A stretch of 64,000 nucleotides of DNA from Cenarchaeum sp. Lineage in GTDB: Archaea > Thermoproteota > Nitrososphaeria > Nitrososphaerales > Nitrosopumilaceae. This document shows, one piece after another, positions 3,971 to 63,760 of this stretch (positions are counted from its first letter, which is position 1; every line of letters begins with the position of its first letter). A program made the position numbers and the translations under genes. The stretch spans positions 1,056,001 through 1,120,000 of the forward strand of contig CBDESU010000001.1 of the NCBI GenBank assembly GCA_965242695.1, given 5' to 3'. The notes beneath the pieces are model-generated. The model saw nothing but the letters and a program-made list of their open reading frames with translations, made no database searches and was not told the DNA's origin.

Positions 3971-4077
3971 CCACCGCCGCCGCCTGGGATTCGGCCCCCT
4001 TTTTCCTCAAGGTGCTGACCGCGCTGCGAGTGGACGGCAGCCCACCGCCGCCGCCTGGGATTCGGCCCCCTTTTTCC
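3971..4077 (+). repeat. Putative ectopic CRISPR spacer integration 1: 36-bp duplication with 35-bp insert
   Basis: CCACCGCCGCCGCCTGGGATTCGGCCCCCTTTTTCC at 3971 and 4042 (identity runs to 38 bp); period 71; frameshifts the IS66 transposase; shares CGGCCCC at positions 22-28 with the minus-strand CRISPR repeat. Confidence 0.75.
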
Positions 4078-5056
4078 TCCCCATCCTCCCTGCCGACGCG
4101 CCGCCGCTGTCGCCGCCCCTCTGCCGGCTCCCGCTTCCCTCCGATCCCCGCTCCGGCGAGTCCGCGTTCTTGTCCCTGCCGCCGCCGCTGCCGCCGCTGC
4201 CGCCGCCCCTCCGCCTGCCGTCGTCCCCCTCGTTGTACGATCCGATCTTTGCGCGCAGCCTGTCGCGCTCCCTGTGGCATATCGCCCGCGACGAGGTCGG
4301 GCTGTTGGGGTTTTCATGGCGCCGGAGCAGGGTGCGCATGCCCTCTACATCCTCCTCGAGCCTTCTGCATCTTTCCGACAGCTCGGCGCTCGTACCGGCC
4401 GAGGTGGCCAGTGCCGTCTTCTGCAGGCGGCAGGTGATCCTCAGGCCGTCCCGCTCCGCGGTGACCTCCGACAGATTGGACACAAGCTGACGGATGGTCT
4501 CGTTGAGGGTTTCCGTCTCGGCGTCATGCCTGCGGTGCACATTCGCAAGCTCCCTGCGGAGCAGGGTGACCTCGGACGGCGATCCCATGGCCGCGCGCCG
4601 AACCAATTTGATCGATAAAGGTTTGGATCCTTGGCGCCAGGTTCGGGTGCCCGGCGCCGCCGAACTGCCGCAGCCGCGGCATGTCGTCGGCAGGCTGTGC
4701 CAGCGCACCTGCCGCCACCTGCAAGCAGCCTCGCCCCCCCCCCCCCCCCCCCCCCCCGTCAGGCGTCAGTGGCATGGGTGAGACCTGAGCTCTCGCTACA
4801 TGAGGGCATCTGGCGTGCACATTCAGGTCGGGCATACGTTGCACGCATTGGAGGGGGTGGTGGCGGTAAGACGCAGTTGACGACGGAGGCCAGAATGTCT
4901 ACCAGCTGGTGTACGATGCCCGACATCCATTGTCACTAGACAGAAATGCGAGCGGCGGGAATTTTGCTCACGTGTTGGACTAAACACCGGGCCCACATGG
5001 ATGCATGGACTGGGGGCAGGGCAGGTGCGAAGTGGATAGCGCAGGCTTACCGTCCA

Positions 5057-5863
5057 TGTCACAGCCGCTGCACGACATGCTAGCCGATGCGGGGAGGGTC
5101 GATGCCAGGCTGCGGTACTGCGCGGCGGCGCGGCGGCCGCCTCTGAGGTCCCCGAGTGTCGCATCCTGCTCGTCCCCGCGAAGAGGGGCTGTACAAGGCC
5201 GTCGCAGGACTGGTCGGAGCATGCGCGAGGGCTGGGCCGTCGCTCCGTCCGAGTGGCGCGAGGGGCAGAGGCGGCGGCGCAGGGGCGACTGAGGCCGCAG
5301 CCGGTGCCGTCGCACTAGACGGATTTACGCGCATGCATGCATCCGCGCATTACGACGCGGGGAGCGGCCGCGTGGCCCTCGTAGATGTACACAAGTCGCG
5401 TAGGATGGCGACGGTCCTGCTGTTCGGACGCGGCGCCTAGATTGCAAGGCTAGCCGGTAGTGGGCATTCCGCGCGCCTGTACGTGTGCATCAAAGCGACG
5501 CCGGACGCGTTCGATCTGCTCGCCTGCATGGTGCATGTGGGCAGGCCTGCCGCCGTCCCGCGGTCGCAGTTCGGCGGTGATGAGGGCGCCTGTGCAGGTG
5601 CCGTAGAAGCGGCCGAGCTTGCGTGGCGACTCGGCATTGCTCCTGCGTACGGCGCCGAGGATGCGTCCGAGTGCCTTGCAAGGCTGCTTTCGTTGGCCAG
5701 CACGGCAGATGCCGGAATGGGGACCTTTGTCATCGAGAGAGGCTCCGCGCGCAGGCTGTTTGCAGCGGGGTTTGCTCGCCGCTACGCCAGCGGGCCGCCG
5801 TCCCACCGGCGACTCCTGCTGACGAGTTGCATCACGCATGTGCGTAGGGCCACGCGACACTGA
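5057..5863 (+). pseudogene. Degraded hypothetical gene (frameshift and internal stop)
   Basis: Protein-like ORFs 5156-5440 and 5483-5863 are in one frame separated by a single TAG; no family recognised. Confidence 0.35.
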
Positions 5864-6596
5864 ATTGTGGCGGATGCGGTAGTGCTACACGGCGCGGTCT
5901 CGGCCCACGCCACTCTTTTGGCCGCCGCCATCGCGCCGCCGAGTGCCGCGGCCGCCCGCCCGTCCTCGGCCGCCGCATCGGACATCTCGGCCGAGCTTGC
6001 CCGCTCCTCGTCGGCCCCCTCGTGCAGCATGGCCTTTTCGGCCAGCATTGTAGGCCTGTTGCCGTCCAAACGGAACTCGCCCGTCGCCCACGCGTCCGCG
6101 TTGTCCGCCCACTTGGCCGCCTCCAGCGCCAGCATGCCCTCTTCCCCGCCCGCCGCCTTCTTCCACCGGGCCGCTTCGCGCACCATCCCGCGCACCTCCC
6201 CCTTCAGCCTGCGCGCCGCCCGCGCCCTCTTGTCCTTGCCGGCCATCTCGTACGCCTCTGCGGCCCTGCCGTACGCGGCGGCCGCCGCCCTGCCGCGCCC
6301 GGCCGCCAGCCCGAACGCCCTGCCCGCCTTTTTCATTGCGGCGGCCTCGCGCCCATCGCCCCTCCAATCTCCCTCATCGCAGCTTCGACCGCGGGATCGC
6401 CCTCCTCAGCGACGCGCCCCTTCGCCTCCGCAACCCTCATCAGCCTGGCGAACATTCCCGCCCTGGCCGTCCACGCGCGGCCGTACGCCGAGAGCGCCGC
6501 GCGGTCGTGCGCGGCAGCCTCCCACGCGGATGCGGCGCCGGCCGCGGCCCAGACGGCCGCTACGCGATCGCCGTGTCCGCCAGTGCCGCCCGCCAC
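5782..6596 (-). pseudogene. Ala-rich hypothetical protein, split or fragmented
   Basis: Overlapping ORFs 6333-6596 and 5782-6336 of similar Ala/Glu-rich helical composition. Confidence 0.3.
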
Positions 6597-6688
6597 GCCC
6601 GCCGGCCCGCGCGGCCCGTCCTTATGCGTAGGGGTAGTCTACGCGGCCGGCCGGCAGCGTGGCTCCGACAGGCCAAGCCGGGCCGCCA

Positions 6689-9867: not shown

Positions 9868-12000
9868 CTACGTCCTGGCATGTTTGGTGTCAGACTTCGG
9901 CTTTTCAGGTGACGGGACAAAGATGCCGAGTCCAAAGTGGGAGTTGTTGCCGAGTAAGAGAGGGCCCTTGAAGGATGCCCCGAATGAGATTTTCACTCGG
10001 CTAGCGGCGCCGTGCGGTCTCGCCTTGCCGGGCCGCGCGGCATCAAAAGTGCGGGCCGGCATGCGGCGCGATCCTGCCCGTATCACTGCACCCGCCTCGT
10101 GTTCTATGCGTACTGCATTCCTGTAGTGGTGGTTTTCATCCAGCTCCTTTTCTATCTGCTCTGGCACGCCAAAGTTCTTTTTTGCGTGCCGCGACGTATA
10201 GTACGGCGTGGCAGTCGTCCAGATCTTGCTTTCCTTGAACAGGATACACCTCTTGCCCATGTCCGCTGCCCCGTAGAAGCCGTCAAACCGTATGCGGGCA
10301 ACGGACGTATGCCGGTCGCGGACATCTGTTGTGGCCTGAAACGCGCGCCTTGTCGATGGTTCAAGTCCATATTTTGCATACACCGCGATGTGGTCTATCA
10401 GCCCGTCGCCGTCGTTGTCGACAGGCAGCCAGAACGCGTGGGAGTGCCCCGTGCGAAGGGGCCTGCCCGCATCGTCGTGCCCCGACAGCGACTGGGGCAG
10501 GCGGCCACCCCTGTACAGGCGACCCGCCTGTGACATGACCGCGGCCCTCACCGCTCCCGCAACCTTTACCGTCCTTTCAACCGGCGGGCGCTTACCGACC
10601 ACCTCGTAATATGCAACTTCGGGCAGCAGTGCAGGTGCCAGCAGGCCGTTACCACGCCTCGTGCCGGAACCTAGCAGCAGTGGGCCTGACACGGGGGCTC
10701 TGAACTCGATCTCTGCGTACCACAGGTTCGAGTCGTGGCCGATTTTCTCTAGGCCATCCCAGTCAGGGATCTTGTCCAGCCTTATCGACATGACAGAGTT
10801 CTTCAAGCCCCTGTCGGCAAGTTCGTCCAGTATGGACTTAGCCGCACTGCGCTTGTCGCCCGCCGAGCCGTCCGCATCCCCAGGATCAAGCGGCGTGGTC
10901 GAGCGCCACACGGTCGACCTGCGCACGTACCTCCTGGCCACACTGTCGTTATCAGGAGAAGGAACTAGCTGGAACCGGATCCCGCCAGCCTCGACAAACT
11001 TCGAGTTGATGCGGGCCAGAAGGCGATCCCGTTCAGGGACGCCCATTGACGGGGGAATTATCACTCCTACTCGCCTGACCATCGCATCAGAGTTCTGGTG
11101 TCCTATGCTGGGCATGGCCACGATCGAAGCGCAACCCAGTTTAGGGCCACACATGTCGTGCAGCCTGGCGGCCAGATCTGCAACCGCAGTGCGCGGGACA
11201 AAGCGCCTCGACTCAGTGTCGCTCAGCATGAACGTCACGAGCTTGGCCCTCGGCGCACCGCCCTTCCTGTACCCCCAGCTAGCTTGGTGCGTAATTGGCC
11301 CTGGCTTTACAAACCCCTTGGCGGTGACCTGCTCGAGAAACTCGGCATGCCTCCTTTTTGCATCGCCAAGCATGCCAGCGAGCGGTACATCAATCTTTAG
11401 TTCCGCTTGGCCGGTACCGCCACCGCCACCACCGTCGTTTGGCAGGTACTCCTGCGCCCCGGCAAGCGGTGACAGGGTGTCGGCCAGCATGCCGTTTACC
11501 GCCACGGGATCTATCCCCAGTCCCAGTACCGGCACCTCGCGCGCCAGGTTGCACAGCAGACGAGCCGCCGCGCGGCTGTCCCCACCATCGTCGGGAGCCA
11601 GCGTCCAGGAGTATCTCACTGTGCTTGCAATGTACGGCGCCATTTTCTTGGAGGTGGTGTACGCCCTCGGGTCCCGCGTGGACACGCCTTGCTTTGCATA
11701 GTCCTTTGATATCACATCCATGTCGTTGTTGGGCACGAAGATTATGTACTCTTTTCCCTTCGCCCCTCGAGCCTCGATCCGCGGCGGCCTTTGTCGCTCT
11801 AGGTATTCAAGCGCCCGATCGGCCTCGGCAACGTTGAACCGGCCTGACGGGCTCTGGTAGAGTGCCGCGACAAGCGCGAGAAAGAGCCGGCGTGGCGACG
11901 GAGGCCACTCCGCGCCATGGTACCGCTCAAGGAGAAAGCGGACGTCAATGACGAGGCGTGCCCCGTCTCCGGCCGGCAGTTCCTGCTGTTGTGACGGCAC
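9868..12000 (-). CDS. csb2: Type I-G Csb2 (Cas5/Cas6 fusion), long form of about 710 aa with two Cas6-like C-terminal domains
   Basis: N-terminal YHGAEWPPSPRRLFLALVAA and YIIFVPNND; two W.(S/T).TP ... GPLLLG....G.G motif sets. GTG start at 12000 inferred from the csb1 stop at 12032. Confidence 0.88.
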   Translation of the reverse strand: MPSQQQELPAGDGARLVIDVRFLLERYHGAEWPPSPRRLFLALVAALYQSPSGRFNVAEADRALEYLERQRPPRIEARGAKGKEYIIFVPNNDMDVISKDYAKQGVSTRDPRAYTTSKKMAPYIASTVRYSWTLAPDDGGDSRAAARLLCNLAREVPVLGLGIDPVAVNGMLADTLSPLAGAQEYLPNDGGGGGGTGQAELKIDVPLAGMLGDAKRRHAEFLEQVTAKGFVKPGPITHQASWGYRKGGAPRAKLVTFMLSDTESRRFVPRTAVADLAARLHDMCGPKLGCASIVAMPSIGHQNSDAMVRRVGVIIPPSMGVPERDRLLARINSKFVEAGGIRFQLVPSPDNDSVARRYVRRSTVWRSTTPLDPGDADGSAGDKRSAAKSILDELADRGLKNSVMSIRLDKIPDWDGLEKIGHDSNLWYAEIEFRAPVSGPLLLGSGTRRGNGLLAPALLPEVAYYEVVGKRPPVERTVKVAGAVRAAVMSQAGRLYRGGRLPQSLSGHDDAGRPLRTGHSHAFWLPVDNDGDGLIDHIAVYAKYGLEPSTRRAFQATTDVRDRHTSVARIRFDGFYGAADMGKRCILFKESKIWTTATPYYTSRHAKKNFGVPEQIEKELDENHHYRNAVRIEHEAGAVIRAGSRRMPARTFDAARPGKARPHGAASRVKISFGASFKGPLLLGNNSHFGLGIFVPSPEKPKSDTKHART

Positions 12001-12031
12001 TTCTAGCGACAATAGACTTCGCACCCGCCGG

Positions 12032-13078
12032 CTACTTTTTCTTCTTGGGCTTGCTCTTGGAGTCTTCAAGCTCCTTCTTCGCGCTCGCCAGCTGGAATGT
12101 CGCATCATCTCCTTCGCCCACGCCGAACGACTTGGCCGCGGCCTCTGCAAATGCCACTGCCTCGTCAGGATCAAGCGATACGGCATCCCTTCGACCGTCA
12201 GGATGGACGGCTTCCCACGACGGAATCCCCTTTTCCGAGTCCCTAGTAAGGTTGCAACCCTGGCGAAGATACAAATCGGTGGCCTTCGTCGCAGCCACCA
12301 GCGCAAGTCCCAGTATATACTTGCGGAGGGAGGAGGCGTCGATGCTACTCGACAGCCTGCGCAGCGCGACCAAGTTCACCACCACATCCCTGCGGATGCC
12401 GCCCCTTGCGATGACTCCCCCCGGCTGCCCTGTAGCAGGCGCCTCATTGAATCCATACTCTGACCTCGTGTCGTTCTCGGCAGTGTTAGTGATTTCCCCC
12501 AGCAGATCATCCTTCCTGTAGTCGACAGGCGGGAAGTACTGCGCCGAACGGCTCAGCTCGTCTATGTCGTACGCCCTGATCACGGACGAGATGATCCTCG
12601 GCGCCTTTACCTGCGTGTTGCGCGAGTCCCAGACCCCGAACAGCAGCGATGTCGGGGCCACCTTGGCAAGGGCGCCAGCATCGCCCGATGTCTTGTAGGA
12701 CTGTAGCGCCTCGCGGATGCGTCCGTACACATCCGAGTGCCTCAGCAGTGCATCACCCGCCCTGTGCCCAACCTCGCACAGGTTCACCTTTTGCTGGCCT
12801 GCTGTGATCGTAATCTGTGGTATAAGTCCTCTGTAGCGTCCCTCCATGAACAGCGGCTCCATGCGGTTTGCCTGCGACCCGACGCTGTCAACGAGGCACA
12901 TCTTAGTCCCGTCCTGCAGCGTGTCTATGCAGTACGAGCTCCCGTCGGATCCCGTCCCGGCATACGTGGGCGGGAAGAACGGCTCGCCGGCGCCCTCCAC
13001 CGGCACCAGATGCTCCCTCATCACCAAGGCCGACGGGCCACCCTCGACCCACGCCCCGGCATCCTCGGACAGCCCCAT
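12032..13078 (-). CDS. csb1: Type I-G Cas7 backbone protein (Csb1)
   Basis: FFPPTYA, LVDSVGSQANRMEP, HRAGDA, PTSLLFGVWDS and LRQGCNL. ATG start at 13078 chosen; the ORF extends to 13096. Confidence 0.92.
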   Translation of the reverse strand: MGLSEDAGAWVEGGPSALVMREHLVPVEGAGEPFFPPTYAGTGSDGSSYCIDTLQDGTKMCLVDSVGSQANRMEPLFMEGRYRGLIPQITITAGQQKVNLCEVGHRAGDALLRHSDVYGRIREALQSYKTSGDAGALAKVAPTSLLFGVWDSRNTQVKAPRIISSVIRAYDIDELSRSAQYFPPVDYRKDDLLGEITNTAENDTRSEYGFNEAPATGQPGGVIARGGIRRDVVVNLVALRRLSSSIDASSLRKYILGLALVAATKATDLYLRQGCNLTRDSEKGIPSWEAVHPDGRRDAVSLDPDEAVAFAEAAAKSFGVGEGDDATFQLASAKKELEDSKSKPKKKK

Positions 13079-13079
13079 G

Positions 13080-13817
13080 TCAAACCGGCGCCTCACGGGA
13101 CATATTAAAGGCTTTGTTGGCGCCGCTCCGCCCCGTCCAGAACTCGAACTTCCGGTGGGCTAGGCGCCCAATCGCCCCACTTGCGACGGCGGCCGCAACC
13201 GTCATGGGTAGAGGCTCGCCCCATGTGTAGTAGGCATAGTGGCCCCGCTCGACCTCCCTCCAAGAGTACGACTGCACCCCCACATGGGCAAAGAACTCTA
13301 CAAGTGGGTACGTCCGCATTTCCTTCATCCCCTGCTCGTTGAGGCTAAAGCCGACATCCTGCGCAGTCCATCGCGTGGCGGCATCGATGCCGGACGGGAG
13401 GCTGACCGTCGAAAAATCCGTCCATGTGGACAGCCCGCCCCCCCTCTGACAGTACGCGTTCAAGAGGCGCGCCCACCGCTCCACCAGAGGCTTCGACCTG
13501 ATCTGCCCCGCGAACAGCTTGATTGTCGGCCTGTCGTCAAAGTGGTTCCAAAAGTCCAGCCGCAAACGGACGTCGTCGATGGTCACGGGCGAGTCCGCAT
13601 CGTCGGTCTCTGCTCTGACCGAGCCCGAGCAGTCCTTGAGTCTGCGTATCACGGAGATTGCCGGGTCGGGTTCGGCCGCGCGCAGGACAAACCGATCCCC
13701 ATCAAAGTGCCCCACGGCATCCCCGAGCAGATGGTCGGCGCAGTACAGTATGCCGCAGCATGCAAAGAACTGTCCGGGATTGCGCAGGTCTGTCGCAATA
13801 GTGGATGAGGCTGTCAT
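13080..13817 (-). CDS. cas8g: Type I-G large subunit, short Cas8g (Csb3/Cas8u1-like), 245 aa
   Basis: NPGQFFACCG N-terminal motif, YPLVEFFAHVG; located between cas3 and csb1 with ATGA coupling to cas3. Confidence 0.8.
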   Translation of the reverse strand: MTASSTIATDLRNPGQFFACCGILYCADHLLGDAVGHFDGDRFVLRAAEPDPAISVIRRLKDCSGSVRAETDDADSPVTIDDVRLRLDFWNHFDDRPTIKLFAGQIRSKPLVERWARLLNAYCQRGGGLSTWTDFSTVSLPSGIDAATRWTAQDVGFSLNEQGMKEMRTYPLVEFFAHVGVQSYSWREVERGHYAYYTWGEPLPMTVAAAVASGAIGRLAHRKFEFWTGRSGANKAFNMSREAPV

Positions 13818-16420
13818 TGGTCGCCGGCCCCCTGCTTCTCCGATGCCTGCCAGTCGGCCCCGCGCAGCAGTCCCTCAAGCCAGGCAAGGCCCCACGCGCC
13901 GAACTTCTTTTGCAACGAGGCATACCTCCCCATTACAAGTAGGTGCTCGCTGTCGGCCGCGTCGATCGTTGCATTGGAGTTGAAGCAGGGGCGCGCCCAG
14001 CCGTGGTGCGCGGCGATCAAGTGCAGTACAAGATCCTTCTCCGGATGCCCGTCGAGTGAACCTGCAATCCTTCGGATGGACTCGAATTCGTGCCTGAACC
14101 CGCCCAAACTCAGGGGGCGCCTGCGCGAGGCAGTCTTTGCAAGCGGATCGTTTGCGTTGCCATGCATGCATTCCTGCCAGTGGGGGTGCGACTTGCCCAG
14201 GTCGTGGTATTCCGCCGCCGTGACTATGGCATCGGCCAGGTTGCCGTCTAGCCCCAGGTTGGAGACGATTGATTTAGCCGCCGCCTTGACATCCGCGTGG
14301 TGATCGCCAAGCCGCCGCTCGCTGGACGATGCGGAGTGCTGTCCAGCGGACCTTGCCACATAGTAGCGCAGCTCCTTGCTGGGCGCATCGTAGTCCATCT
14401 CGTCCGCGGAGCTTGTCACTACTGCCGCCGACATCTTCATGTCCGGGTGATTTGCCAGCCACTTTCCCAAGTCGTCCCCGTCGTCAAAGCCGTCTTGATC
14501 ACCGTCCAGCGTGACGCTGCCGTCGCCCCAAACCGCCACTTCGACCCTCATGCGGTTCCTATACTGGTCGTCGTCGGCCACATCGGGTACGCGGCGGTTC
14601 GAGTGTGCTAGCATCCCATCCTCGTTCAGCCCCCCCGCTTCGCAAGGCAACAGGAGTGTGGAGTAGTAGAGGTCGTCGTCGGCGATCTCGCCGATCGTCT
14701 TTACGCGTACAGTGCCGTCCCGCCGTCGAATTATGGCCTTTAGGCCGGAATGCTGGGCGGTGATTTTTTCCAGTATTTTTCTCACGTTCGGCGTCAAGTC
14801 ACGGGCCATTTCATGTGGAAGGAGTGGGTAGAGGTCTAGGACATCCTCTATCACACCCTCGTCCTGGCGGGCCAGTGCCCCCGCATCGCGCCTCCATGCC
14901 ACGTGTGTTTCGGGAACCTGATGCTTGTCGTGGCCGCGCAGCCAGTGATGGACTGCGGGCCGGGCAGGAAGCTCGGCAAGCGAAGTCATGGACCACATGT
15001 CGACGATGTCCGGCGTCAGCGGCTGCGTGTCGGGCACAGGAGATAGCATGTCGGATGTAGCCTGCGCGTCCAGTATGGGCGACAGGTTGCGCGGGCTTGC
15101 ATTGAAAGGCCCATCTGCGACGAGGCGCTTGAGCAGTCCCAAGGACGCGCAGAGGCGCTTCGACGCCCCCTTGTTCTTTTTAATGGCGTCATCCGAGTAT
15201 ACCACTACCGCCCTTGACGATCTGCCTCCGCTGCGGTTTACCCTCCCAAGCCGCTGAACAAGCGAGTCGATGGTAGAAATGTCGGACACCATGTCGTCGG
15301 CGTCAAGATCTGCTCCTACCTCCCCCGCAGATGTAGATACGAGGTAGCGCTGAACTCTGCCACCATCGGAAGCAGGCTTTGTAAACATGGCGAAGACGCT
15401 GGCGGGCGAGGCAGACTCCGCATCTAGAGAGGGGTCCCGTGTTGAGTGTTTTGGTGGTCGTGATGCCCCCGAGTCCGTATCTTTTGCAATGCCGCCGCTC
15501 GTCAGTGTGTCCCTCTCAAATCCGCGCAGTGTGCCAGTAAGGGTAGCTACTTTCATGCCCGCATCACGGAGTTTCTGTGCAATTGCAAGAGCCATGGATG
15601 GTTTCTGTACGTATACGAGCGTCTTGCCCGTCATTTTGAGTGCCTCTGTTGCGATTGCATCCAGCAAATTGGAGTCCCCCGCATCGACCAGCTCGAGGGT
15701 TTTTTTTGCATCATAGCGGTCGCATACTGCTTTGTGTTTCAGATCACTTTCGTCCAAGGATAAAACATTTTCTTTTTCATCGGTGTGGATTGTTGCAGAC
15801 ATTAAAAGGACTCGAGGGGGATAGATTTTCGTAGGTACAGAACCGGAGATCTTTTGTAAGTCTAAAAGGGAGCGTTTAAGTGCGGGGGACAGGTGTGTTT
15901 CGTCGAGTATGATCAGCGAGTCCTGTCCCATGAGTCCTGCATAGAACGGGCGGATTTTGCCCCCAAGTCCATAGCCTGAAAAGAGCAGCCGGCTACCAAC
16001 CATGTCAACAGTCCCTATCACTATAGACGGTTTGTCGGGATGTCGCATCCAGTCACGGCTGTCGGCCAAACCACCTCCTCCGCGAAATGTGCTGATGTAG
16101 GGAGTCAGTGCGAGGGAGTCAGAACCATTTATGTCATCAATGCGGTGCTTAATCTTGACTAGCATCTCGGATGCCTGATCCACAATGACCCTCCGATCTA
16201 CTATGTAAAGCAATCGACGCGGAACACGGACCGCGTGGCCCGACGATGACGTGTGTGAGAGCGCAATAAGCCATATGAGGATGACGGACGTCTTACCCAA
16301 TCCCGTTGGAATGTCAAGGACATCGGGCACATCACCCGTAATCAACCTAGAGTATAGACGATCTTGCCACGGGTACGGCTGATGGCCAGTTATGCGACAG
16401 AACGCCTCTTTAAAGTCCAC
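13814..16420 (-). CDS. cas3: Type I-G Cas3 helicase with C-terminal HD nuclease
   Basis: PYPWQ, PTGLGKT, VDRRVIVDQ, DETH, SAT, QRLGRVNR; C-terminal HDLGK...FRHE...AHHGWARP. Confidence 0.96.
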   Translation of the reverse strand: MDFKEAFCRITGHQPYPWQDRLYSRLITGDVPDVLDIPTGLGKTSVILIWLIALSHTSSSGHAVRVPRRLLYIVDRRVIVDQASEMLVKIKHRIDDINGSDSLALTPYISTFRGGGGLADSRDWMRHPDKPSIVIGTVDMVGSRLLFSGYGLGGKIRPFYAGLMGQDSLIILDETHLSPALKRSLLDLQKISGSVPTKIYPPRVLLMSATIHTDEKENVLSLDESDLKHKAVCDRYDAKKTLELVDAGDSNLLDAIATEALKMTGKTLVYVQKPSMALAIAQKLRDAGMKVATLTGTLRGFERDTLTSGGIAKDTDSGASRPPKHSTRDPSLDAESASPASVFAMFTKPASDGGRVQRYLVSTSAGEVGADLDADDMVSDISTIDSLVQRLGRVNRSGGRSSRAVVVYSDDAIKKNKGASKRLCASLGLLKRLVADGPFNASPRNLSPILDAQATSDMLSPVPDTQPLTPDIVDMWSMTSLAELPARPAVHHWLRGHDKHQVPETHVAWRRDAGALARQDEGVIEDVLDLYPLLPHEMARDLTPNVRKILEKITAQHSGLKAIIRRRDGTVRVKTIGEIADDDLYYSTLLLPCEAGGLNEDGMLAHSNRRVPDVADDDQYRNRMRVEVAVWGDGSVTLDGDQDGFDDGDDLGKWLANHPDMKMSAAVVTSSADEMDYDAPSKELRYYVARSAGQHSASSSERRLGDHHADVKAAAKSIVSNLGLDGNLADAIVTAAEYHDLGKSHPHWQECMHGNANDPLAKTASRRRPLSLGGFRHEFESIRRIAGSLDGHPEKDLVLHLIAAHHGWARPCFNSNATIDAADSEHLLVMGRYASLQKKFGAWGLAWLEGLLRGADWQASEKQGAGDQ

Positions 16421-16550: not shown

Positions 16551-16652
16551 CTGTGGATGGGGCCGCAACAGGGGGTTGCGGAGTACGTTCCGTGGCCAAC
16601 CAGATGCCGCACCATTGCTTCAATGGGGCCGCAGCATAGGAGCTGCTGAGTG
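16551..16652 (-). repeat. Two divergent trailer-end CRISPR repeats
   Basis: 16617-16652 GCTTCAATGGGGCCGCAGCATAGGAGCTGCTGAGTG and 16551-16585 CTGTGGATGGGGCCGCAACAGGGGGTTGCGGAGTA; hairpin retained with altered stem or loop. Confidence 0.8.
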
Positions 16653-16687: not shown

Positions 16688-19600
16688 GCTTCAATGGGGC
16701 CGCAACTTGACAGTTGCGGAAGGCGTCTTGTGGGTCCACACGACCGGCGGCATCGCCATGCTTCAATGGGGCCGCAACTTGACAGTTGCGGAAGGGCTCG
16801 TCCGAGGCAGTCTCTTCAACCGTCAGCCTGCTTCAATGGGGCCGCAACTTGACAGTTGCGGAAGGCCTCAAGAGGAGTGCGACGACCCATGAGCGGCCGG
16901 CTTCAATGGGGCCGCAACTTGACAGTTGCGGAAGGGCCGCCTTGCTGTTTTCGGATTCGCTCCTCGTCGGCGCTTCAATGGGGCCGCAACTTGACAGTTG
17001 CTGAAGGCTTGCGCCTGCCGTCCTTGGCCCGCTTGCCGCCCCGGCTTCAATGGGGCCGCAACTTGACAGTTGCGGAAGGCTTGCGCCTGCCGTCCTTGGC
17101 CCGCTTGCCGCCCCGGCTTCAATGGGGCCGCAACTTGACAGTTGCGGAAGGCCCGCGCAAGCCCAAGCCCAAGCCCAAGCCCGCGCGGCTTCAATGGGGC
17201 CGCAACTTGACAGTTGCGGAAGGAGTCGTGCAGGCTGGCGGCAGTGGCGTCGGGGTCGCTTCAATGGGGCCGCAACTTGACAGTTGCGGAAGGCTCGACG
17301 GCGCTCGGCGCGCGGTACTCGTAGGCTGGCTTCAATGGGGCCGCAACTTGACAGTTGCAGAAGGCGTTGCCGCCATGCGCCGCCCCCTCAACGTGGCGTT
17401 GCTTCAATGGGGCCGCAACTTGACAGTTGCGGAAGGACCATATCATTTTCCTTAAACAAAAGATCATCCTCTAGCTTCAATGGGGCCGCAACTTGACAGT
17501 TGCGGAAGGCGACTACCCCAAGACGACCCTCAAGGCCAAGCCCTTGCTTCAATGGGGCCGCAACTTGACAGTTGCGGAAGGGATGGCCTCTTCAACGCCG
17601 ATTTTCAGCCCGTTAAGGCTTCAATGGGGCCGCAACTTGACAGTTGCGGAAGGCGCGTACAGGGACAAGCTGGCGCGCCGGCGCCGCCTGCTTCAATGGG
17701 GCCGCAACTTGACAGTTGCGGAAGGCGGAATCTACGCATGGCAGGCGGGCCAAGCCGGCAGCTTCAATGGGGCCGCAACTTGACAGTTGCGGAAGGACGG
17801 CAGCCGCCCTCCCGCCGGCGAACCCTGGCACGTGGCTTCAATGGGGCCGCAACTTGACAGTTGCGGAAGGGAGGCCGAGCAGCGCGAGTTCGACGAGGAC
17901 GAGGAGGAGCTTCAATGGGGCCGCAACTTGACAGTTGCGGAAGGTCGTACCCCATTGCCGGCGGGCGCAGACGGACCGGGCTTCAATGGGGCCGCAACTT
18001 GACAGTTGCGGAAGGCCCGCCATCACGCCCGCCCCCCACCGGGGGGGGTAATGCTTCAATGGGGCCGCAACTTGACAGTTGCGGAAGGAGTACATCCGCT
18101 TCCTGCACACCGTACACCGCATCCCGCTTCAATGGGGCCGCAACTTGACAGTTGCGGAAGGTCGCCCAGCAGCAGGGCGGCGAATATTGCGTGATATGGC
18201 TTCAATGGGGCCGCAACTTGACAGTTGCGGAAGGCGAGGGCCACGCCGACCCCGCCGCCGTCGCGGCATGGCTTCAATGGGGCCGCAACTTGACAGTTGC
18301 GGAAGGCCCCCAGGAGAAGATCCAGCGCCTAGAGGAGTATGCGCTTCAATGGGGCCGCAACTTGACAGTTGCGGAAGGACGGGGGCGGGGAAACAGGGGC
18401 GGCGGCGACAACGGCTTCAATGGGGCCGCAACTTGACAGTTGCGGAAGGCTCGCAAAGGCGGCTATCCAAGCCGAAATAGATCGGCTTCAATGGGGCCGC
18501 AACTTGACAGTTGCGGAAGGAGAAGAACGACGACAGCCGGAGCGATCCCTGATGATCGCTTCAATGGGGCCGCAACTTGACAGTTGCGGAAGGCAGGCCG
18601 TCCTCGGGCGCCGTCCACGACTTGTCGACGCTTCAATGGGGCCGCAACTTGACAGTTGCGGAAGGGTGACGGGCCCCTTGCTCATGCTCGCGATGGGACG
18701 GGCTTCAATGGGGCCGCAACTTGACAGTTGCGGAAGGCCGGGCCGCGCGCGGCATGCCCGACGAAGACCTGGTGCTTCAATGGGGCCGCAACTTGACAGT
18801 TGCGGAAGGTCGCAATCGGCACCGTATTCATATCCCGCACGTCGCTTCAATGGGGCCGCAACTTGACAGTTGCGGAAGGAGGAGCTCCGCCTCCTAGAGC
18901 GCTCCGACGAGGATCGGCTTCAATGGGGCCGCAACTTGACAGTTGCGGAAGGGTCGTCCTCGATCGACCTGGGCCCCGACCAGACCCGGCTTCAATGGGG
19001 CCGCAACTTGACAGTTGCGGAAGGCGTGATCTCGGACGACGAGGCCGCCCGCATCCTGGCGGCTTCAATGGGGCCGCAACTTGACAGTTGCGGAAGGGGC
19101 GGGGCTGACCAAGCCCAAGCCCGACCAGGCCGCGCTTCAATGGGGCCGCAACTTGACAGTTGCGGAAGGTTCTTCCTGGGCGGCGGCAGGGGCGGCTTGT
19201 CTTGCTTCAATGGGGCCGCAACTTGACAGTTGCGGAAGGGGCACCCGTGAGGCCCGTCTCGGTATGGAACTGATTGCTTCAATGGGGCCGCAACTTGACA
19301 GTTGCGGAAGGTCCTTTGCATGGAACGGCAGGTGCGCATCGACCAGCGGCTTCAATGGGGCCGCAACTTGACAGTTGCGGAAGGATCATGACCGAGCCGC
19401 GCGTGAACGCCAGGCGGTACGCTTCAATGGGGCCGCAACTTGACAGTTGCGGAAGGAATCTGGCTATTGCGCCAAGTAAAGGCCCCGACTGGGCTTCAAT
19501 GGGGCCGCAACTTGACAGTTGCGGAAGGTATCCCCCCTGCACGGCCGCCCATGCCCCGGGCTTCAATGGGGCCGCAACTTGACAGTTGCGGAAGGCCCAC

Positions 19601-22600
19601 ATTCCGACCACACCTGCCTAGAGTGCGGCATCGCTTCAATGGGGCCGCAACTTGACAGTTGCGGAAGGGGGGAGCGGATCGGCCGAATCATGCAAACAGA
19701 GGCGGGCTTCAATGGGGCCGCAACTTGACAGTTGCGGAAGGCACCTGCCGTCCCGCGAGATACCCGCCGCCGACGCCGCTTCAATGGGGCCGCAACTTGA
19801 CAGTTGCGGAAGGACGGTCCTGCCGTGGGTGCTTATCGTGGTGGCGTAGCTTCAATGGGGCCGCAACTTGACAGTTGCGGAAGGCCGGCCTCACCTGCCG
19901 CAACGACATCATCTGGCGGCTTCAATGGGGCCGCAACTTGACAGTTGCGGAAGGCGGCGGCCCTGTCCGTGTACCCGGCGAATTCGTCAATGCTTCAATG
20001 GGGCCGCAACTTGACAGTTGCGGAAGGGGGGACGTCGCAGGCAGGCAAGGCATGGAGGCGCAAGCTTCAATGGGGCCGCAACTTGACAGTTGCGGAAGGC
20101 TCCATACAGAAGGGCGGAATCAAGCGGGCTATAAGCTTCAATGGGGCCGCAACTTGACAGTTGCGGAAGGTCTCGCAGAATGTCATTGCCGCGCCGTTCG
20201 GTGTCAGCTTCAATGGGGCCGCAACTTGACAGTTGCGGAAGGTTATAAGGCCCCGCGCACGGCGCCCCCCTGATGACGGCTTCAATGGGGCCGCAACTTG
20301 ACAGTTGCGGAAGGCCAGCACGGCCACGGCCAACACGGCAATGACACCCGCTTCAATGGGGCCGCAACTTGACAGTTGCGGAAGGCACTATGTAGCGCGT
20401 CATGCGGCGGCCCCGATTCATGCTTCAATGGGGCCGCAACTTGACAGTTGCGGAAGGCCGTGTCTTTGGCTTCGCCGTCATCCCAAGCGTGGCTTCAATG
20501 GGGCCGCAACTTGACAGTTGCGGAAGGCGTATCAGTAGAGTCTCGGCAGGGACGTTCCGAGGGGCTTCAATGGGGCCGCAACTTGACAGTTGCGGAAGGT
20601 TCAGTCAACTCGTTCTTTATCGGCGAAATCCGCCAAAGCTTCAATGGGGCCGCAACTTGACAGTTGCGGAAGGGTCGGCGCTTATTGTGGATACTGAAAA
20701 GACGGGCAGGCTTCAATGGGGCCGCAACTTGACAGTTGCGGAAGGATGCATGGTTTGCGCCGCTAATAGATCCTATGGTGGCTTCAATGGGGCCGCAACT
20801 TGACAGTTGCGGAAGGCGCCGCCCGCCGGAGACGAAGGTCTTGCGGACAATTCGCTTCAATGGGGCCGCAACTTGACAGTTGCGGAAGGCCGCAAACTCA
20901 AACTTCTGCCCCTTGCGGGAAACGTTGCTTCAATGGGGCCGCAACTTGACAGTTGCGGAAGGCGCCCTAAAGCCGGCCGGCAACTACGTGCTAGTGATGC
21001 TTCAATGGGGCCGCAACTTGACAGTTGCGGAAGGGGCTCGCGCCGGCCGCTAAAGAGGCGGGCGTGGTGAGCTTCAATGGGGCCGCAACTTGACAGTTGC
21101 GGAAGGCGCCCGCCCGTGCATGGGGGACAAGCATACGGCGATGCTTCAATGGGGCCGCAACTTGACAGTTGCGGAAGGCGCCGCGTCGGCCGTCACGGAG
21201 ATGCGCCACGACGGCTTCAATGGGGCCGCAACTTGACAGTTGCGGAAGGCCGAGTACGTTTCCCATGCGAGGCACCCGACGAGGATGCTTCAATGGGGCC
21301 GCAACTTGACAGTTGCGGAAGGCGTCAAAAGCGGCGCCCGGATCCCTGATTTGCGAGGGGCTTCAATGGGGCCGCAACTTGACAGTTGCGGAAGGCGTAT
21401 CAGTAGAGTCTCGGCAGGGACGTTCCGAGGGGCTTCAATGGGGCCGCAACTTGACAGTTGCGGAAGGTTCAGTCAACTCGTTCTTTATCGGCGAAATCCG
21501 CCAAAGCTTCAATGGGGCCGCAACTTGACAGTTGCGGAAGGGTCGGCGCTTATTGTGGATACTGAAAAGACGGGCAGGCTTCAATGGGGCCGCAACTTGA
21601 CAGTTGCGGAAGGATGCATGGTTTGCGCCGCTAATAGATCCTATGGTGGCTTCAATGGGGCCGCAACTTGACAGTTGCGGAAGGCGCCGCCCGCCGGAGA
21701 CGAAGGTCTTGCGGACAATTCGCTTCAATGGGGCCGCAACTTGACAGTTGCGGAAGGCCGCAAACTCAAACTTCTGCCCCTTGCGGGAAACGTTGCTTCA
21801 ATGGGGCCGCAACTTGACAGTTGCGGAAGGCGCCCTAAAGCCGGCCGGCAACTACGTGCTAGTGATGCTTCAATGGGGCCGCAACTTGACAGTTGCGGAA
21901 GGACCCATCGACGATGGGCTTCAGGGCGAAGACTGGCTTGCTTCAATGGGGCCGCAACTTGACAGTTGCGGAAGGTGGCATACCGTCTTTTCGCCCGTCG
22001 TCGCTTGCGGCGCTTCAATGGGGCCGCAACTTGACAGTTGCGGAAGGCAAAGTCCTTCTCCCCGAAGACGTCAAAGTACTGATCGCGGCTTCAATGGGGC
22101 CGCAACTTGACAGTTGCGGAAGGATCAACCAAGTTCCCGCCCGCTCGATAGACCTTTGCGCTTCAATGGGGCCGCAACTTGACAGTTGCGGAAGGCTGCT
22201 ACCTCGCGTTCCGCAAGTTCGGCGAGCCGTCGCTTCAATGGGGCCGCAACTTGACAGTTGCGGAAGGTGACTGGGTACAACGCGGGGGGATCGACCGATG
22301 CGGAGCTTCAATGGGGCCGCAACTTGACAGTTGCGGAAGGACGTCCCGGTGGCGCCCAGGTCATACAGGGGGCGGACAGCTTCAATGGGGCCGCAACTTG
22401 ACAGTTGCGGAAGGTCGAATGGCGGAGGCCCCGATCGTCAACTTTGCCCTGCTTCAATGGGGCCGCAACTTGACAGTTGCGGAAGGCTCCTAGACGCCAT
22501 CCAGGCCATCCGCATCGCCACGCTTCAATGGGGCCGCAACTTGACAGTTGCGGAAGGTACACGAAGTCCGCAGGGACGGAACGGGCCTCTTCAGCTTCAA

Positions 22601-40905: not shown

Positions 40906-40921
40906 CCGCACCCACCGCGCC

Positions 40922-42703: not shown

Positions 42704-42805
42704 GCCGCCCCTTCGCGCGCGCGGACCTAGTGCGCGGCGCCAAATGCGGTTGACGCCGTGGTGAGGAAAAGTTGACAGCGCGCGGCTGCCCCGCACCACA
42801 CTACA

Positions 42806-42825
42806 CCGCACCGCATAAATCCGCC
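42806..42825 (+). promoter_or_regulatory. Conserved 20-bp TPR-gene promoter motif CCGCACCGCATAAATCCGCC (also 44458, 45891, 50915, 52038, 56416, 57715; variant at 55976)
   Basis: Seven identical copies, each beginning 37-38 bp before a TPR start codon; ATAAAT sits at TATA-box distance. Confidence 0.85.
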
Positions 42826-42842
42826 CCGTACAGCCCGCCCCC

Positions 42843-46993: not shown

Positions 46994-48245
46994 CGCGCAG
47001 CGGCGCCCCTTCGCGCCGCCGCCGCAAGCCGGGTGATCAGCTCCCTTTCCGCGGCCCGAAAGCCGCAGTCCGCGTCGCGCCAAAAGCCGCGCCAGGCCTC
47101 GTTGAGAAGGCCGGCGACCGTGTCGCCGCCCGATCCGCCACGTTCCCGCCCCCCGCCGGAGTAGCCGCGCAGTCCCGCCCGCCCGAACGTCGGGAGTATG
47201 GAGGCGGCAACCTCTTGGAGCAGCTCGGACGGGAAGGCGTGGCCGTACCCGGGCGGCGGGCTGCCGCACAGCTGCGCCATCGCGCCCCATTCCGCCCTGA
47301 TGCGATCCGCCTCTGGCTCGTGCCCGAGCAGTCGCATCCCGGCGTCGAGCAGGCGCATCCTGGCCTCGCCGGAGGGGTGGTCCTGCTCGGACAGCGGCCT
47401 GAGCTCGTAGATGTCCAGGTCAGTCTTGGTAACGAGGTGCAGGTTCGAGTGCGCGTATGCAGGCCCCGCCGCAAACAGGGCAAAGAGATCGCAGAACGCC
47501 TCCTGTATCCAGATAGACTTCCACCGTGACCACATCCACTCCACACCGTCCCGCGTCAGCGCCGGATCCGGCCCGCACTCCGTCTTGCCCACAAGCTGCG
47601 AGTACCGATCATCGACGACGCCAAGCGCGCCGTCCGTGCCATCCATGATGGGCTCGCACCCGGCTCCACGATTTACGTGGACGAACAGCAGGTGCCCCAT
47701 CTCGTGATAAAAGTCAGGCATGTGCAATAGGAACGCCGCCTCCGAGAACGGGACATGCACGGTATTGGTCGCCGGATGCGCAAAGTAGTACTCACCCGAC
47801 GTACACGATACCGCCGGACAGGGAAACGGCAGGCCCACCTCGCCGTGCATCGCGGACAGGACATCGTTGAGGAACACTGCCCGCTCCGTCTGGCAGTGCA
47901 GCGGCGGCATGCAGTACCCGTCGACCGCTGTTATTACCCTGGTGCAACCTTTCAGGATCCGCAACGCCTTGGCGCCAGCGCCACCCGTACAGCCGTTGAC
48001 AAGCAGGTCGTCAGCCCGTTCCAACATGCTCGACTGCCGCTCCAGTGTCACTATAGTCGCGGCGGCCAGGCGTTCCAGTGCCGCATGCCGCCGCCGCCGC
48101 CGGCCGGCGCCCTGTACATGGACCCGGTCGCGGCGGCCAGGCGTTCCAGCGCCGCATGCCGCTGTCTGTCCGGAATTGCGGCCCTCAGGTACTCGGCCCT
48201 GTCGATCTGCTCGCGGATGGCGCACCTCAAGTAGCGGGTGCTCAT
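46990..48245 (-). pseudogene. HExxH zinc-metallopeptidase-like protein (about 394 aa), frameshifted by a 71-bp duplication-plus-insert
   Basis: FYHEMGH, EAFCDLFA...GPAY and DHPSGEAR; ATG 48245 overlaps the upstream stop (ATGA); 1256-71 = 1185 bp = 395 codons. Confidence 0.75.
48056..48162 (+). repeat. Putative ectopic CRISPR spacer integration 2: 36-bp duplication with 35-bp insert
   Basis: GTCGCGGCGGCCAGGCGTTCCAGYGCCGCATGCCGC at 48056-48091 and 48127-48162 (one mismatch); insert CGCCGCCGCCGGCCGGCGCCCTGTACATGGACCCG. Confidence 0.8.
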
Positions 48246-48649
48246 CGTCTGTACATCTTCCCGTGCAGGGACGCGCACAAGTTGTCGAGGGCATCCGAGA
48301 CATCGCCGAGGATCGACACGTCCTTGCCTGACAGATCAACCCTGCCGCCCGTGCCTTCCTCGAGCCTAGTCTCGACGGACAGTATGCCGTCCCTTATGCC
48401 CGGCCAGCCCTCGCGGTGGCGGAGGCGCAGAAACTCGGACATCTCCTCGCCGTTGATTCCCAAGGTGAAGTAGGTCCGCCCGCGGAGGTGACGGCTCAGC
48501 GGTGCAAGTACGGCCAGTAGGCTCTCGGCCTCGTCCTGCCGCTCCACGAGGCCGCCGCGCGACTCGATCGCCTCCAAAGCGGTGAGGTACGGATCGAGTA
48601 GATTCGTAGCGCAGTGGAGGTTGGTGCCGAGCGCGCCCATGATGCTCAT
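48242..48649 (-). CDS. 135-aa hypothetical protein, copy 3, coupled to the HExxH gene
   Basis: Paralogous to 49485-49892 and 48864-49271. Confidence 0.8.
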   Translation of the reverse strand: MSIMGALGTNLHCATNLLDPYLTALEAIESRGGLVERQDEAESLLAVLAPLSRHLRGRTYFTLGINGEEMSEFLRLRHREGWPGIRDGILSVETRLEEGTGGRVDLSGKDVSILGDVSDALDNLCASLHGKMYRR

Positions 48650-62037: not shown

Positions 62038-62185
62038 CGCCCCTGCCGCATGTAGTGCCTTGCCAGCGCGCGACATTCAGTGTGTTAGCTAGGCCGCCGT
62101 ACTGTAGGACGAGCACAGCCACACGGCGCCGCACGTAAACCCTCGGCGCTCGGCGCGGTCATTCCAGCGGCCGGCGTCCCTCAAG

Positions 62186-62789: not shown

Positions 62790-63001
62790 ACGCGCATGCC
62801 GGCCGCGGCGGTGCGCTCTACGCGCTGGAACGGGATGCAGAGGCCTTGGAGGCGTACACCCGCGCTGTCGAGATCAACCCGGAATACGCCGCCGCGCATG
62901 CCGGCCGCGGCGATGCGCTTGCCGCACTAGGACGCCACGGCGAGGCGCAGGATGCCCACGAAGCGGCCTCTCGCATCTCAAGCAATGCCGGCAACGACTA
63001 G
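62790..63001 (+). pseudogene. C-terminal TPR fragment related to 61054-62037
   Basis: Near-identical DNA to the 102-bp unit plus the native stop. Confidence 0.7.
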
Positions 63002-63141
63002 CACCCCTGCCGCATAGTGCACCCTGTCCACGTGCGATGGGGTTTGCGCTCGCCATCCGCCGCACTGTAGGACAAACACGGCCACGCGGCGCCGCACGGA
63101 AACCCCTCACGCGGCCATTCCAGCGGCCAGTGTCCCTCAAG

Positions 63142-63543
63142 TCAAGACATGGATCTCTCGCGCCAAGGCGTGGTATACTCGATCACCTCGCCCGAGGCGA
63201 TCATCTCCCTTATCTCACTCTCGCTGTACTTTGATTCTAGGTTGCACGGGTCAAACCGTATCGTGATGTACCTAGGCTTCGTCTTTCGGTGTTCGCGTAC
63301 GCGCTCAGCGCGCTCGCGCGCCGAGAGGGTGCGGCGTCCTTGCGACTGCCGGCCATGCTTGCCCGCCATCCCAGCGCCGTCCGCCCCGCCGCCCTCGCAG
63401 GCGCTACCCTGCGGCGCGGCACCGGCCGCGCCATCGGGCACGCCGCCAGCCGATGCCGCCGCGTCCTGCCCTGCTCCCGCCCCGCCGCGGGCATTGGCCG
63501 CGGGCGCCTCGGCCTCCGCGCCGCATCCTGCAGGCCTGTCCAT
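63142..63543 (-). CDS. 133-aa hypothetical protein, copy 3
   Basis: Paralogue with a divergent middle segment (RERAERVREHRKTKPRY). Confidence 0.7.
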   Translation of the reverse strand: MDRPAGCGAEAEAPAANARGGAGAGQDAAASAGGVPDGAAGAAPQGSACEGGGADGAGMAGKHGRQSQGRRTLSARERAERVREHRKTKPRYITIRFDPCNLESKYSESEIREMIASGEVIEYTTPWRERSMS

Positions 63544-63652
63544 GCTGGGCGGATATTCCACTCCAATATAAGGCCTGCCCTGCCTAGCCGCGAGATCCCT
63601 GTCCTAGTGCGGCACGACGAGGCCGCCTTGTAGCACCGCCGCATCCGGGGCC

Positions 63653-63760
63653 GGCGCGATCGGCGCCGTGCCGCTGGGCTGTGGAGTGCCTGTACCAGGC
63701 GGCGGCCAACGGAGCGACATCCTAGGCGCGATCGGCGCCGTGCCGCCGGGCTGCGGAGGG
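63653..63760 (-). repeat. Putative ectopic CRISPR spacer integration 3: 36-bp duplication with 36-bp insert
   Basis: 63653-63688 and 63725-63760 (three mismatches); insert CCTGTACCAGGCGGCGGCCAACGGAGCGACATCCTA; paralogous site 62696-62731 has a single copy and no insert. Confidence 0.8.

Follow-up and report, generated by a model that had tools for sequence, protein, structure and literature searches.

Does a CRISPR adaptation module confine its insertions to its own array, or can it scatter spacer-sized units across a natural chromosome? The question is raised by a 64,000-nucleotide stretch of DNA from Cenarchaeum sp. (contig CBDESU010000001.1, positions 1,056,001 to 1,120,000; hereafter the window), which holds a type I-G CRISPR-Cas locus and, outside its array, three sites at which a segment of about repeat length is duplicated around a short insert. 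A first-pass annotation read these sites as scars of the resident Cas4/1-Cas2 integrase. All three are present at the positions claimed, as direct repeats (DRs) flanking an insert with periods of 71, 71, and 72 bp, and the unit size that they were said to share with the array is borne out, array periods also clustering at 71-72 bp.

Site 1, left DR, 3971..4008: 38 bp, 38/38 identical to 4042-4079
Site 1, insert, 4009..4041: 33 bp, period 71
Site 1, right DR, 4042..4079: identical to the left DR
Site 2, left DR, 48056..48091: 36 bp, 35/36 against the right DR (1 mismatch)
Site 2, insert, 48092..48126: 35 bp, period 71
Site 2, right DR, 48127..48162
Site 3, left DR, 63653..63686: 34 bp with 2 mismatches (32/34); read to 63760, 36 bp with 3 mismatches (33/36)
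Site 3, insert, 63687..63724: 38 bp with the 34-bp DR, 36 bp with the 36-bp DR; period 72
Site 3, right DR, 63725..63758
Gene of a multi-copy family broken by site 2, 46990..48339, minus strand: HEMGH motif in the translated product

These three sites are a small sample of a genome-wide phenomenon. The genome (3.89 Mb in two contigs, C1 and C2; 67% GC; approximately 96% complete) was scanned by comparing each position with the position d bases further on, with d from 20 to 300, and isolated matches shorter than d were kept. Isolated units with d of 65-77 numbered 98, among which periods of 71 (27 units) and 72 (31 units) accounted for 58, with shoulders at 67-70 and 73; their DR pairs carried 0, 1, 2, and 3 mismatches in 66, 22, 7, and 3 cases, respectively. 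Against 94 events at d 65-78, the background amounted to 19 events in the 25 bins from d 40 to 64 and 10 in the 23 bins from d 79 to 101, or approximately 0.4-0.8 events per neighbouring period bin. A genome-wide peak at 36 plus 35-37 bp, set beforehand as a refutation test, was strongly positive, with periods of 71-72 and a modal DR length of 36 bp, the same as that of the CRISPR repeat. The only other large peak, at d = 102, is explained by TPR-type protein repeats; genes with such 102-bp (34-amino-acid, TPR-like) repeats are numerous at 44000-54300 and 61000-62100 of the window and genome-wide.

The working set comprises 94 events (d 66-75, DR of at most 44 bp), a density of 24 per Mb, whose DR pairs have 0, 1, 2, and 3 mismatches in 63, 21, 7, and 3 cases. 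DRs of 34-44 bp occur in 53 of the 94. In the 53 events with DRs of at least 34 bp, the period minus 36 averages 35.36 (standard deviation, SD, 1.20), compared with 35.98 (SD 1.18) for the array spacers, so that insert and spacer sizes are close, though not identical (Mann-Whitney p = 0.0008). Event counts per 100 kb are near Poisson (mean 2.42, variance 2.88). As for clustering near the cas locus, which was considered and set aside, four events were counted at up to 25 kb from the array and seven at up to 100 kb, where 1.2 (P=0.035, uncorrected) and 4.8 were expected.

The approximately 94 genomic scars, the three window sites included, are very probably the product of ectopic spacer integration by the resident type I-G Cas4/1-Cas2, as judged from sequence comparison. 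The picture of an active off-array integrase of relaxed specificity, proposed in the first-pass annotation, is supported by the genome-wide peak, by foreign or distant inserts, and by co-occurrence with Cas1. Following the known Cas1-Cas2 mechanism, both 3' ends of a spacer-sized fragment would attack the two strands of a non-CRISPR target approximately 36 bp apart, and gap filling would duplicate 36 bp on either side of an insert of approximately 35 bp, with the gain of one CRISPR-sized unit of 71-72 bp. Fragments used off-array would have bypassed the Cas4 gate for a protospacer-adjacent motif (PAM), insertions in genes would mostly be purged, and surviving scars would turn over, and sometimes amplify, via slippage between the DRs. 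That 63 of the 94 DR pairs are perfect points to recent, ongoing activity.

The scars might instead be artefacts of assembly or sequencing, a concern that a genome assembled from a sponge metagenome invites and that the cross-run check addresses with contigs and at site 2. There, contigs from at least three runs (X6, X9, and X2) belonging to three studies extend across DR1 and the insert and into DR2 for 32 nt or more, so the junctions of this site are real. These contigs begin at 47284 or 47358 and show 0, 0, and 3 differences across both internal junctions, although one of the runs may be the source of the assembly itself. Substitutions (1-3) in 31 of 94 DR pairs, the avoidance of genes, and the presence of like structures in assemblies of two other species also speak against an artefact, which is extremely unlikely. 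Among the contig pieces listed, one from run X1 stops precisely where DR1 of site 2 meets the insert (48091); filled and empty alleles could coexist in that sample.

The avoidance of genes is pronounced. Intergenic DNA holds 47 of the 94 events against 22% expected from 20,000 random placements, and only 24 lie inside calls of open reading frames (ORFs) against 65% expected; on these crude gene calls, based on GC at third codon positions (GC3), insertions within genes have mostly been purged. Site 2 does lie in a gene, where the 71-bp addition shifts the reading frame after approximately 47 codons (start codon near 48268, read from the sequence). The idea that the integrase knocks out a transposase and a peptidase stands in part: a transposase target was found at none of the sites, and a peptidase is plausible for the site-2 gene from its HEMGH motif, though its product has no Pfam or NCBIfam match. 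No gene was called at sites 1 and 3.

The type I-G locus and its relatives

As read from its genes, the CRISPR-Cas system of the window is of type I-G, in agreement with the first-pass annotation: the Cas4-Cas1 fusion, Cas2, Cas3, and the GSU0053 and GSU0054 families are all present. All components lie on the minus strand, in the order cas4-cas1, cas2, leader, array, cas3, an unassigned ORF, GSU0053/cas7, and GSU0054/cas5-6.

cas4-cas1 fusion, presumed integrase, 40922..42883, minus: 653 amino acids; Pfam Cas_Cas1 4.5e-87, Cas_Cas4 1.1e-14
cas2, 40603..40911, minus: 102 amino acids; assigned by reading of the sequence and by position rather than by a family search
Leader, 40406..40602, minus: 197 bp between cas2 and the first repeat; TTATAA box on the minus strand
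CRISPR array, 16688..40405, minus: 330 repeats of 36 nt and 329 spacers (mean 35.98 nt, SD 1.18)
Two degenerate repeats at the trailer end of the array, 16551..16652 (approximate, hand-counted), minus
cas3, 13814-16420, minus: Cas3 helicase and C-terminal domains; HD domain at 20.2 bits, under its cut-off of 23.1
Unassigned ORF, 13080-13817, minus: in the position expected for the Cas8u2/Csx17 large subunit; no Pfam match
GSU0053/cas7 (Csb1), 12032-13096, minus: PF09617 4.6e-42
GSU0054/cas5-6 (Csb2), 9868-12306, minus: PF09609 7.7e-19
Interference genes together, 9868..16420, minus

The array, the only one in the genome with that 36-nt repeat, has periods of 72 (121), 71 (77), 73 (66), 70 (30), and 74 (28). 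Its leader is placed on the cas2 side on the strength of the degenerate repeats at the low-coordinate end, the gene order, and the best Rfam match, CRISPR-DR16 on the minus strand, which falls below the gathering score. Compared with the structure of the Geobacter sulfurreducens Cas4/1 protein (7MI4; E=3e-145), the fusion conserves D87 and K102 of Cas4, the Cys motifs, and E380 of Cas1, and with this intact catalytic make-up the integrase looks functional. It has, relative to the Geobacter protein, an N-terminal extension of approximately 68 amino acids and an insertion of approximately 27 (residues 125-151), rich in Gly and charged residues, that separates the first Cas4 motif from the nuclease core; relatives within the genus align from residue 60-76 on, and the best database matches outside the genus (genus records left out) reach at most 48% identity.

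If Cas4/1-Cas2 made the scars, genomes lacking Cas1 should be free of them. In relatives, of which 400 kb each were scanned, the following was found (G000 denotes the present genome).

G004: Cas4/1 79% identical; identical repeat; GC 70.5%; 7 events at d 71-72
G002: Cas4/1 53% identical; variant 36-nt repeat, array of approximately 40 kb with period 71-72; GC 70.3%; 14 events at d 67-74
G001: Cas4/1 not found; no array; GC 58%; 0 events at d 64-74, one at d 75
G003: Cas4/1 not found; no array; GC 51%; 0 events
G017 (another genus): Cas4/1 52% identical; small array; GC 38%; 1 weak candidate

G000, G002, and G004 each contain one match to the Cas1 family PF01867; none was found in G001 and G003 (both 99% complete). 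Scars occur in three of three Cas1-positive congeners, at 17-35 per Mb, and, in the 400 kb sampled from each, in neither of the two Cas1-negative ones, as the first-pass annotation had anticipated. None of the events of G004 and G002 was found filled in G000, which marks them as species-specific and recent.

It is conceivable that another Cas1-Cas2 of equal unit size, borne by a virus or plasmid or since lost, made the scars. Self-derived inserts lacking a PAM are unlike the work of a Cas4-fused integrase, and in a genome approximately 96% complete an extrachromosomal element could be missing. On the other side, Cas4/1 is the single PF01867 match in the whole assembly, unit sizes agree with the resident array in all three species, which each encode a Cas4/1 of their own, and the perfect DR pairs (63/94) imply recent, ongoing activity. 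This explanation is very unlikely compared with integration by the resident enzyme.

Several other features were seen around the locus. A DDE-type transposase ORF (8464-9819, plus strand), whose Pfam match is weak at 21.4 bits (cut-off 23), adjoins cas5-6 at the end of the interference operon, and a protein with an Mrr-type restriction endonuclease domain is encoded at 6689-7870 (minus). Approximately 550 bp upstream of site 1 stands a perfect 13-bp tandem repeat, TGTGTTTGCCGGA (3308-3418; 8.5 copies, 100% identity), where no genes are called, and a run of 24 C occupies 4734-4757. The organism is a sponge-associated, ammonia-oxidising archaeon: its genome encodes an archaeal AmoA, and its DNA is present in sponge-metagenome runs of four studies.

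Inserts and empty sites

The origin of the inserts separates integration from local duplication. When 98 inserts were compared with their own genome by BLAST, 14 had a plausible source elsewhere, and nine of these match it at 94-100% over 32-37 nt, the match stopping at the DR edges. The sources of the nine lie hundreds of kilobases away or on the other contig. Such matches to distant loci with sharp ends indicate captured, spacer-sized fragments rather than local slippage; inserts do not derive from adjacent DNA, and several are exact copies of distant loci. For the remaining 85% or so of inserts, no source is present in the assembly, and inserts therefore come mostly from DNA absent from the genome. 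By comparison, only two of the 329 array spacers have a perfect match in their own genome. Inserts of G000 gave matches of only 18-22 nt in 2 Mb of relatives' DNA, and the whole array gave none in GenBank phages; both blanks say little.

Four of the 14 self-derived inserts, and one self-matching array spacer (source at C2:698844), originate in a region of approximately 35 kb, C2:673297-706077. It includes orc1/cdc6, the genes of both PolD subunits, and an intergenic segment of low GC that is probably the replication origin, and as a whole it may be a hotspot of prespacer capture. Proviruses were considered as self-sources and rejected: the presence of housekeeping genes, namely those for the CCA enzyme, glutamine synthetase, SHMT, PolD, and Orc1/Cdc6 at C2:680-708 kb and for ArgRS and a GTPase at C1:1519-1530 kb, shows that these regions are not proviral.

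Empty sites show the targets before insertion. Any other match in the genome exists for 44 of the 94 event regions, and six of the 44 have an uninterrupted paralog on which the two flanks overlap by 36-39 bp, so that one target copy and no insert is present there. The cleanest cases are C1:2062135 (copy 3 kb away, 97%) and site 1, with two paralogs on C2 (C2:384773-385105 and C2:629387-629716; 94-95% identity), each with a single target copy and no insert. The site-2 paralog, C1:1123013-1123404, also has a single target copy. Orthologous sites were sought for three loci in four relatives; one was informative, C1:646576, for which the orthologous intergenic region of G004, the sister species, contains the target once and lacks the insert, and two aligned outside the event only.

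These observations bear on the suggestion that the units are orphan mini-CRISPR arrays of two repeats and one spacer, decayed or horizontally acquired. One unit does fit it: at C2:312248-312345, the repeat shows a clear relationship to that of the main array (same 3' end, variant stem), and this is probably a true orphan mini-array rather than a scar. Every other unit has its own unique repeat, which lacks similarity to the CRISPR repeat and is ordinary local sequence, single in paralogs and in one ortholog. Full-length copies of a unit elsewhere in the genome exist for only three of the 94, and two of these copied units, C2:21121 and C2:22547, represent one event within a later duplication. 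As an account of the scars at large, orphan arrays are scarcely credible.

Target choice, unit heterogeneity, and later evolution of the scars

Several results weigh against integration by Cas4/1-Cas2 as the source of the scars, and they concern the comparison with relatives, the targets, the inserts, and the shape of the units. The comparison is confounded: GC (58% and 51%) and genome size also set the Cas1-less relatives apart, the three positive genomes are related to one another, and 400 kb is a limited sample of each relative. In addition, G017 combines a Cas4/1 and a small array with a single candidate in its 400 kb, so that this integrase family alone is insufficient.

The targets carry no likeness to the repeat or the leader. 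Their best match to the repeat averages 14.85/36 over 53 events against 14.40 (SD 1.64) over 5000 random genomic windows, and no leader-like flank was seen; repeat likeness of the targets was consequently rejected as matching at chance level. The same holds for the match of targets 1 and 3 at 17 of 36 positions, emphasised in the first-pass annotation: when a small slide and both strands are allowed, the scores are 17 for site 1 and 15 for site 3, and 436 of the 5000 random windows (five of them from the array) score at least 17. The only target-sequence signals are G at position 1, G at 4, and C at 5. On each strand the duplicated segment starts with G in 56-58% and with T in 3-4% of cases, the first duplicated base being typically G or C, and the weaker signals at positions 4 and 5 give G-N-N-G-C at each duplicated end. 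Target choice is thus nearly sequence-independent. Targets are also richer in GC (77%) than the genome (67%) or intergenic DNA (64.5%), and a preference for palindromes or cruciforms was rejected on this ground, since perfect stems of at least 6 (19% of events against 10-13% of random 36-mers) and the mean folding energy (-11.5 against -9.7 kcal/mol) both fit the higher GC. Elsewhere in the genome, the decamer ATGCGATCGC occurs in 70 copies, 17 times the mononucleotide expectation, and GCGATCGC in 574 copies, 3.8 times expectation; this motif recurs in intergenic sequence, several scar targets included.

As to the inserts, both of the two tried against IMG/VR lacked a viral match, a blank that says little; the site-1 insert matches nothing elsewhere in the genome or in IMG/VR, and the site-3 insert has no exact IMG/VR match. 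An exact TTN stands beside the source in only one of the 14 self-derived cases, so the TTN-type PAM that the first-pass annotation proposed to look for failed to appear at these sources. For the G. sulfurreducens Cas4/1, the portion of PMC6547450 at hand describes selection of TTN in 50% of unique spacers and loss of this selectivity on mutation of the Cas4 nuclease. The 14 cases are suggestive only, and they would fit off-array fragments having escaped the PAM gate of Cas4. The two self-matching array spacers, numbers 245 and 319 when counted from low coordinates, have their sources at C2:698844-698878 and C1:975632-975669. Both sources have a neighbouring TTA, but the position of the leader would predict it on the other side. 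They may persist because they were flipped, that is, inserted backwards, and are harmless, a pattern that two spacers can only suggest.

The shape of the units is heterogeneous. Fifty of the 94 events are canonical (DR 34-44 bp, period 70-75), three have a long DR with a period of 68-69, 14 have DRs of 26-31 bp with a period of 66-69, as from a shorter stagger with a normal insert, and 27 have a period of 70-75 and a matching DR of just 22-33 bp. Shorter matching DRs (22-33 bp) thus occur in 41 of the 94. In the last 27 the period holds at 70-72 despite the short DR, and among perfect events DR length and period correlate at 0.05. A fixed stagger predicts a fixed DR, so that short DRs at constant period count against the integrase. 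Approximately half of the short DRs reach approximately 36 bp once gaps and mismatches are allowed, which suggests old events (e.g., C1:1262759); the others do not. A 5'-flap model, in which the extra bases come from the source flank, was considered for the short DRs and is not supported by the one clean case, C2:535454.

The scars also appear to have evolved after their formation. The mismatch classes (63, 21, 7, and 3) fall off geometrically, which fits turnover, for which precise excision by DR slippage would be the obvious route. Eight tandem arrays with a period of 69-72 were found, of n+0.5 or approximately five copies, whose remainder is near the DR length, mostly 32-40 bp.

C2:1268624-1269100: tandem array
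C1:1603098: tandem array
C2:875175: tandem array
C1:1792189: tandem array, length 71+36
C2:361054: tandem array
C2:1210675: tandem array, length 72+36
C2:1034820: tandem array
C2:167718: tandem array
C2:173437-173640: three DRs and two different inserts, periods 72+71
C2:223802-223970: three DRs and two different inserts, periods 70+65

A remainder of 32-40 bp is as expected from amplification of a DR-insert-DR unit by slippage, and the tandem arrays appear to be slippage-amplified ectopic units, a birth of satellites from CRISPR scars. The two loci with two inserts are candidate two-spacer proto-arrays. Seeding of neo-arrays across the genome, as the first-pass annotation envisaged, is only weakly seen, in these two loci and the amplified single units. 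The first insert at C2:173437-173640 opens with 11 nt identical to the downstream flank.

A further explanation is a Cas-independent process with an intrinsic 71-72-bp periodicity, such as template switching, slippage in replication or repair, or another element, for which the match to the CRISPR unit would be coincidental or indirect. The conservation of the period at short (22-33 bp) or long (44-73 bp) duplications, the existence of tandem arrays with a period of 69-72, and the lack of repeat likeness in targets and of a PAM at self-derived sources are all in its favour. It does not account for inserts of spacer length that copy, with sharp ends, loci hundreds of kilobases off or on the other contig, nor for a DR mode equal to the repeat length; the tandem arrays mostly comprise n+0.5 copies, the part left over being 32-40 bp, as from amplified DR-insert-DR units, and no scars were seen in what was sampled of the two congeners without Cas1. 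A process of this kind is unlikely, and ectopic integration by Cas4/1-Cas2 is preferred.

Known systems and the meaning of the scars

Off-target integration by Cas1-Cas2 is known in Escherichia coli, where the type I-E enzyme generates repeat-length duplications (Nivala 2018, Nat Microbiol 3:310, as cited in PMC7054753 and bioRxiv 148544), and the birth of such 'neo-CRISPRs' is described as a route to new arrays in passages citing Nivala, Shipman and Church 2018 (PMC7054753, bioRxiv 148544, PMC6698737, PMC9456107). The present scars resemble that case, as excerpted there, in combining a spacer-sized insert with a repeat-length duplication of a non-CRISPR target. In E. coli, however, the passages describe an over-expressed integrase in a laboratory strain and rare events recovered by deep sequencing, whereas approximately 94 natural events are retained in this genome, along with amplified units. 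Off-target events in E. coli are reported, in the excerpted part of PMC9456107, to be favoured near IHF-like or leader-like motifs; here, by contrast, there is no repeat or leader likeness and no PAM, and three archaeal species bear scars. Natural evidence for off-target integration is called 'circumstantial', in two species only, in the available text of bioRxiv 148544.

The closest relative in make-up is the Cas4/1-Cas2 module of G. sulfurreducens (Almendros et al. 2019, PMC6547450), which, in the portions at hand, shares the Cas4-Cas1 fusion with its conserved catalytic residues, the order cas4/1, cas2, leader, and array, and the 36-nt repeat, with spacers predominantly 36 bp long. That module is portrayed there as strict in its choice of TTN and as inserting where leader and repeat meet; the term 'off-target' is absent from the available text, which describes no genome-wide ectopic integration. 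Ectopic acquisition at CRISPR1 and CRISPR3 of Streptococcus thermophilus is similar in that integration occurs away from the leader-proximal repeat, but, as far as the excerpts of PMC7999890 and PMC5338259 go, it stays inside the array at a bona fide repeat, unlike the scars. Off-target acquisition has been put forward as one way in which isolated arrays arise (Shmakov 2020, as cited in PMC13142298). Isolated or orphan arrays, in the cited account of Shmakov et al., share a recognisable CRISPR repeat, whereas nearly every unit here consists of one insert and a non-CRISPR repeat peculiar to that unit.

Target-site duplication by a transposon or casposon was considered and rejected, the inserts being 32-38 bp long and unique in sequence and the Cas1 homologue single. 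Casposons are kilobase-sized and leave short duplications of approximately 14-15 bp, unlike the inserts of approximately 35 bp and duplications of approximately 36 bp seen here, where no second Cas1 homologue was found. The likeness lies in a Cas1-family integrase, target-site duplications, archaeal chromosomes, and the same broad lineage, as in the Cas1-solo casposases, e.g., those of family 1 of Nitrosopumilus (PMC8464041). In the literature covered, supplements excepted, no description of tens to a hundred such scars in any natural genome was found, nor any such account concerning type I-G or these archaea. The mechanism is known, and what is new is its natural scale, the independence from PAM and target, and the downstream evolution.

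A wider reading, held with moderate confidence, is that the CRISPR integrase acts in this symbiont lineage as a chronic, genome-wide insertional mutagen that is nearly target- and PAM-independent. On this reading, approximately one retained acquisition in four to five would be off-array (94 isolated scars against 329 array spacers), and genes would be disrupted by scars, which would themselves undergo turnover by slippage, expand into 71-bp satellites, and now and then acquire another insert; this would be an ongoing, natural, de novo birth of proto-arrays. The scars would not be expressed as CRISPR RNAs (crRNAs) and would hence keep self-derived spacers (approximately 10-14%, against less than 1% in the array). 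With self spacers tolerated in this way, they would form an unselected record of adaptation sampling, the orc1/cdc6 cluster included. A bolder version within this reading holds that what the integrase sets is the length of the complete added unit, repeat and spacer together (approximately 72 bp), rather than the stagger alone.

In practical terms, isolated two-repeat "CRISPRs" returned by array finders in such genomes are likely to be integration scars rather than arrays. Off-target Cas1-Cas2 integration has so far been mainly a rare laboratory event, and its natural cost and its role in founding arrays have been conjectural. With approximately 100 natural target and insert sequences per genome, the intrinsic specificity of Cas4/1-Cas2 would become readable, and the scars would offer a view of naive self-sampling free of the autoimmunity filter. 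The intermediates, from the single stray insertion through the tandem satellite to the two-spacer proto-array, would be open to observation. Three related genomes with tens to approximately 100 events each would thereby provide a natural measure of the fidelity of CRISPR adaptation and of its mutational cost.

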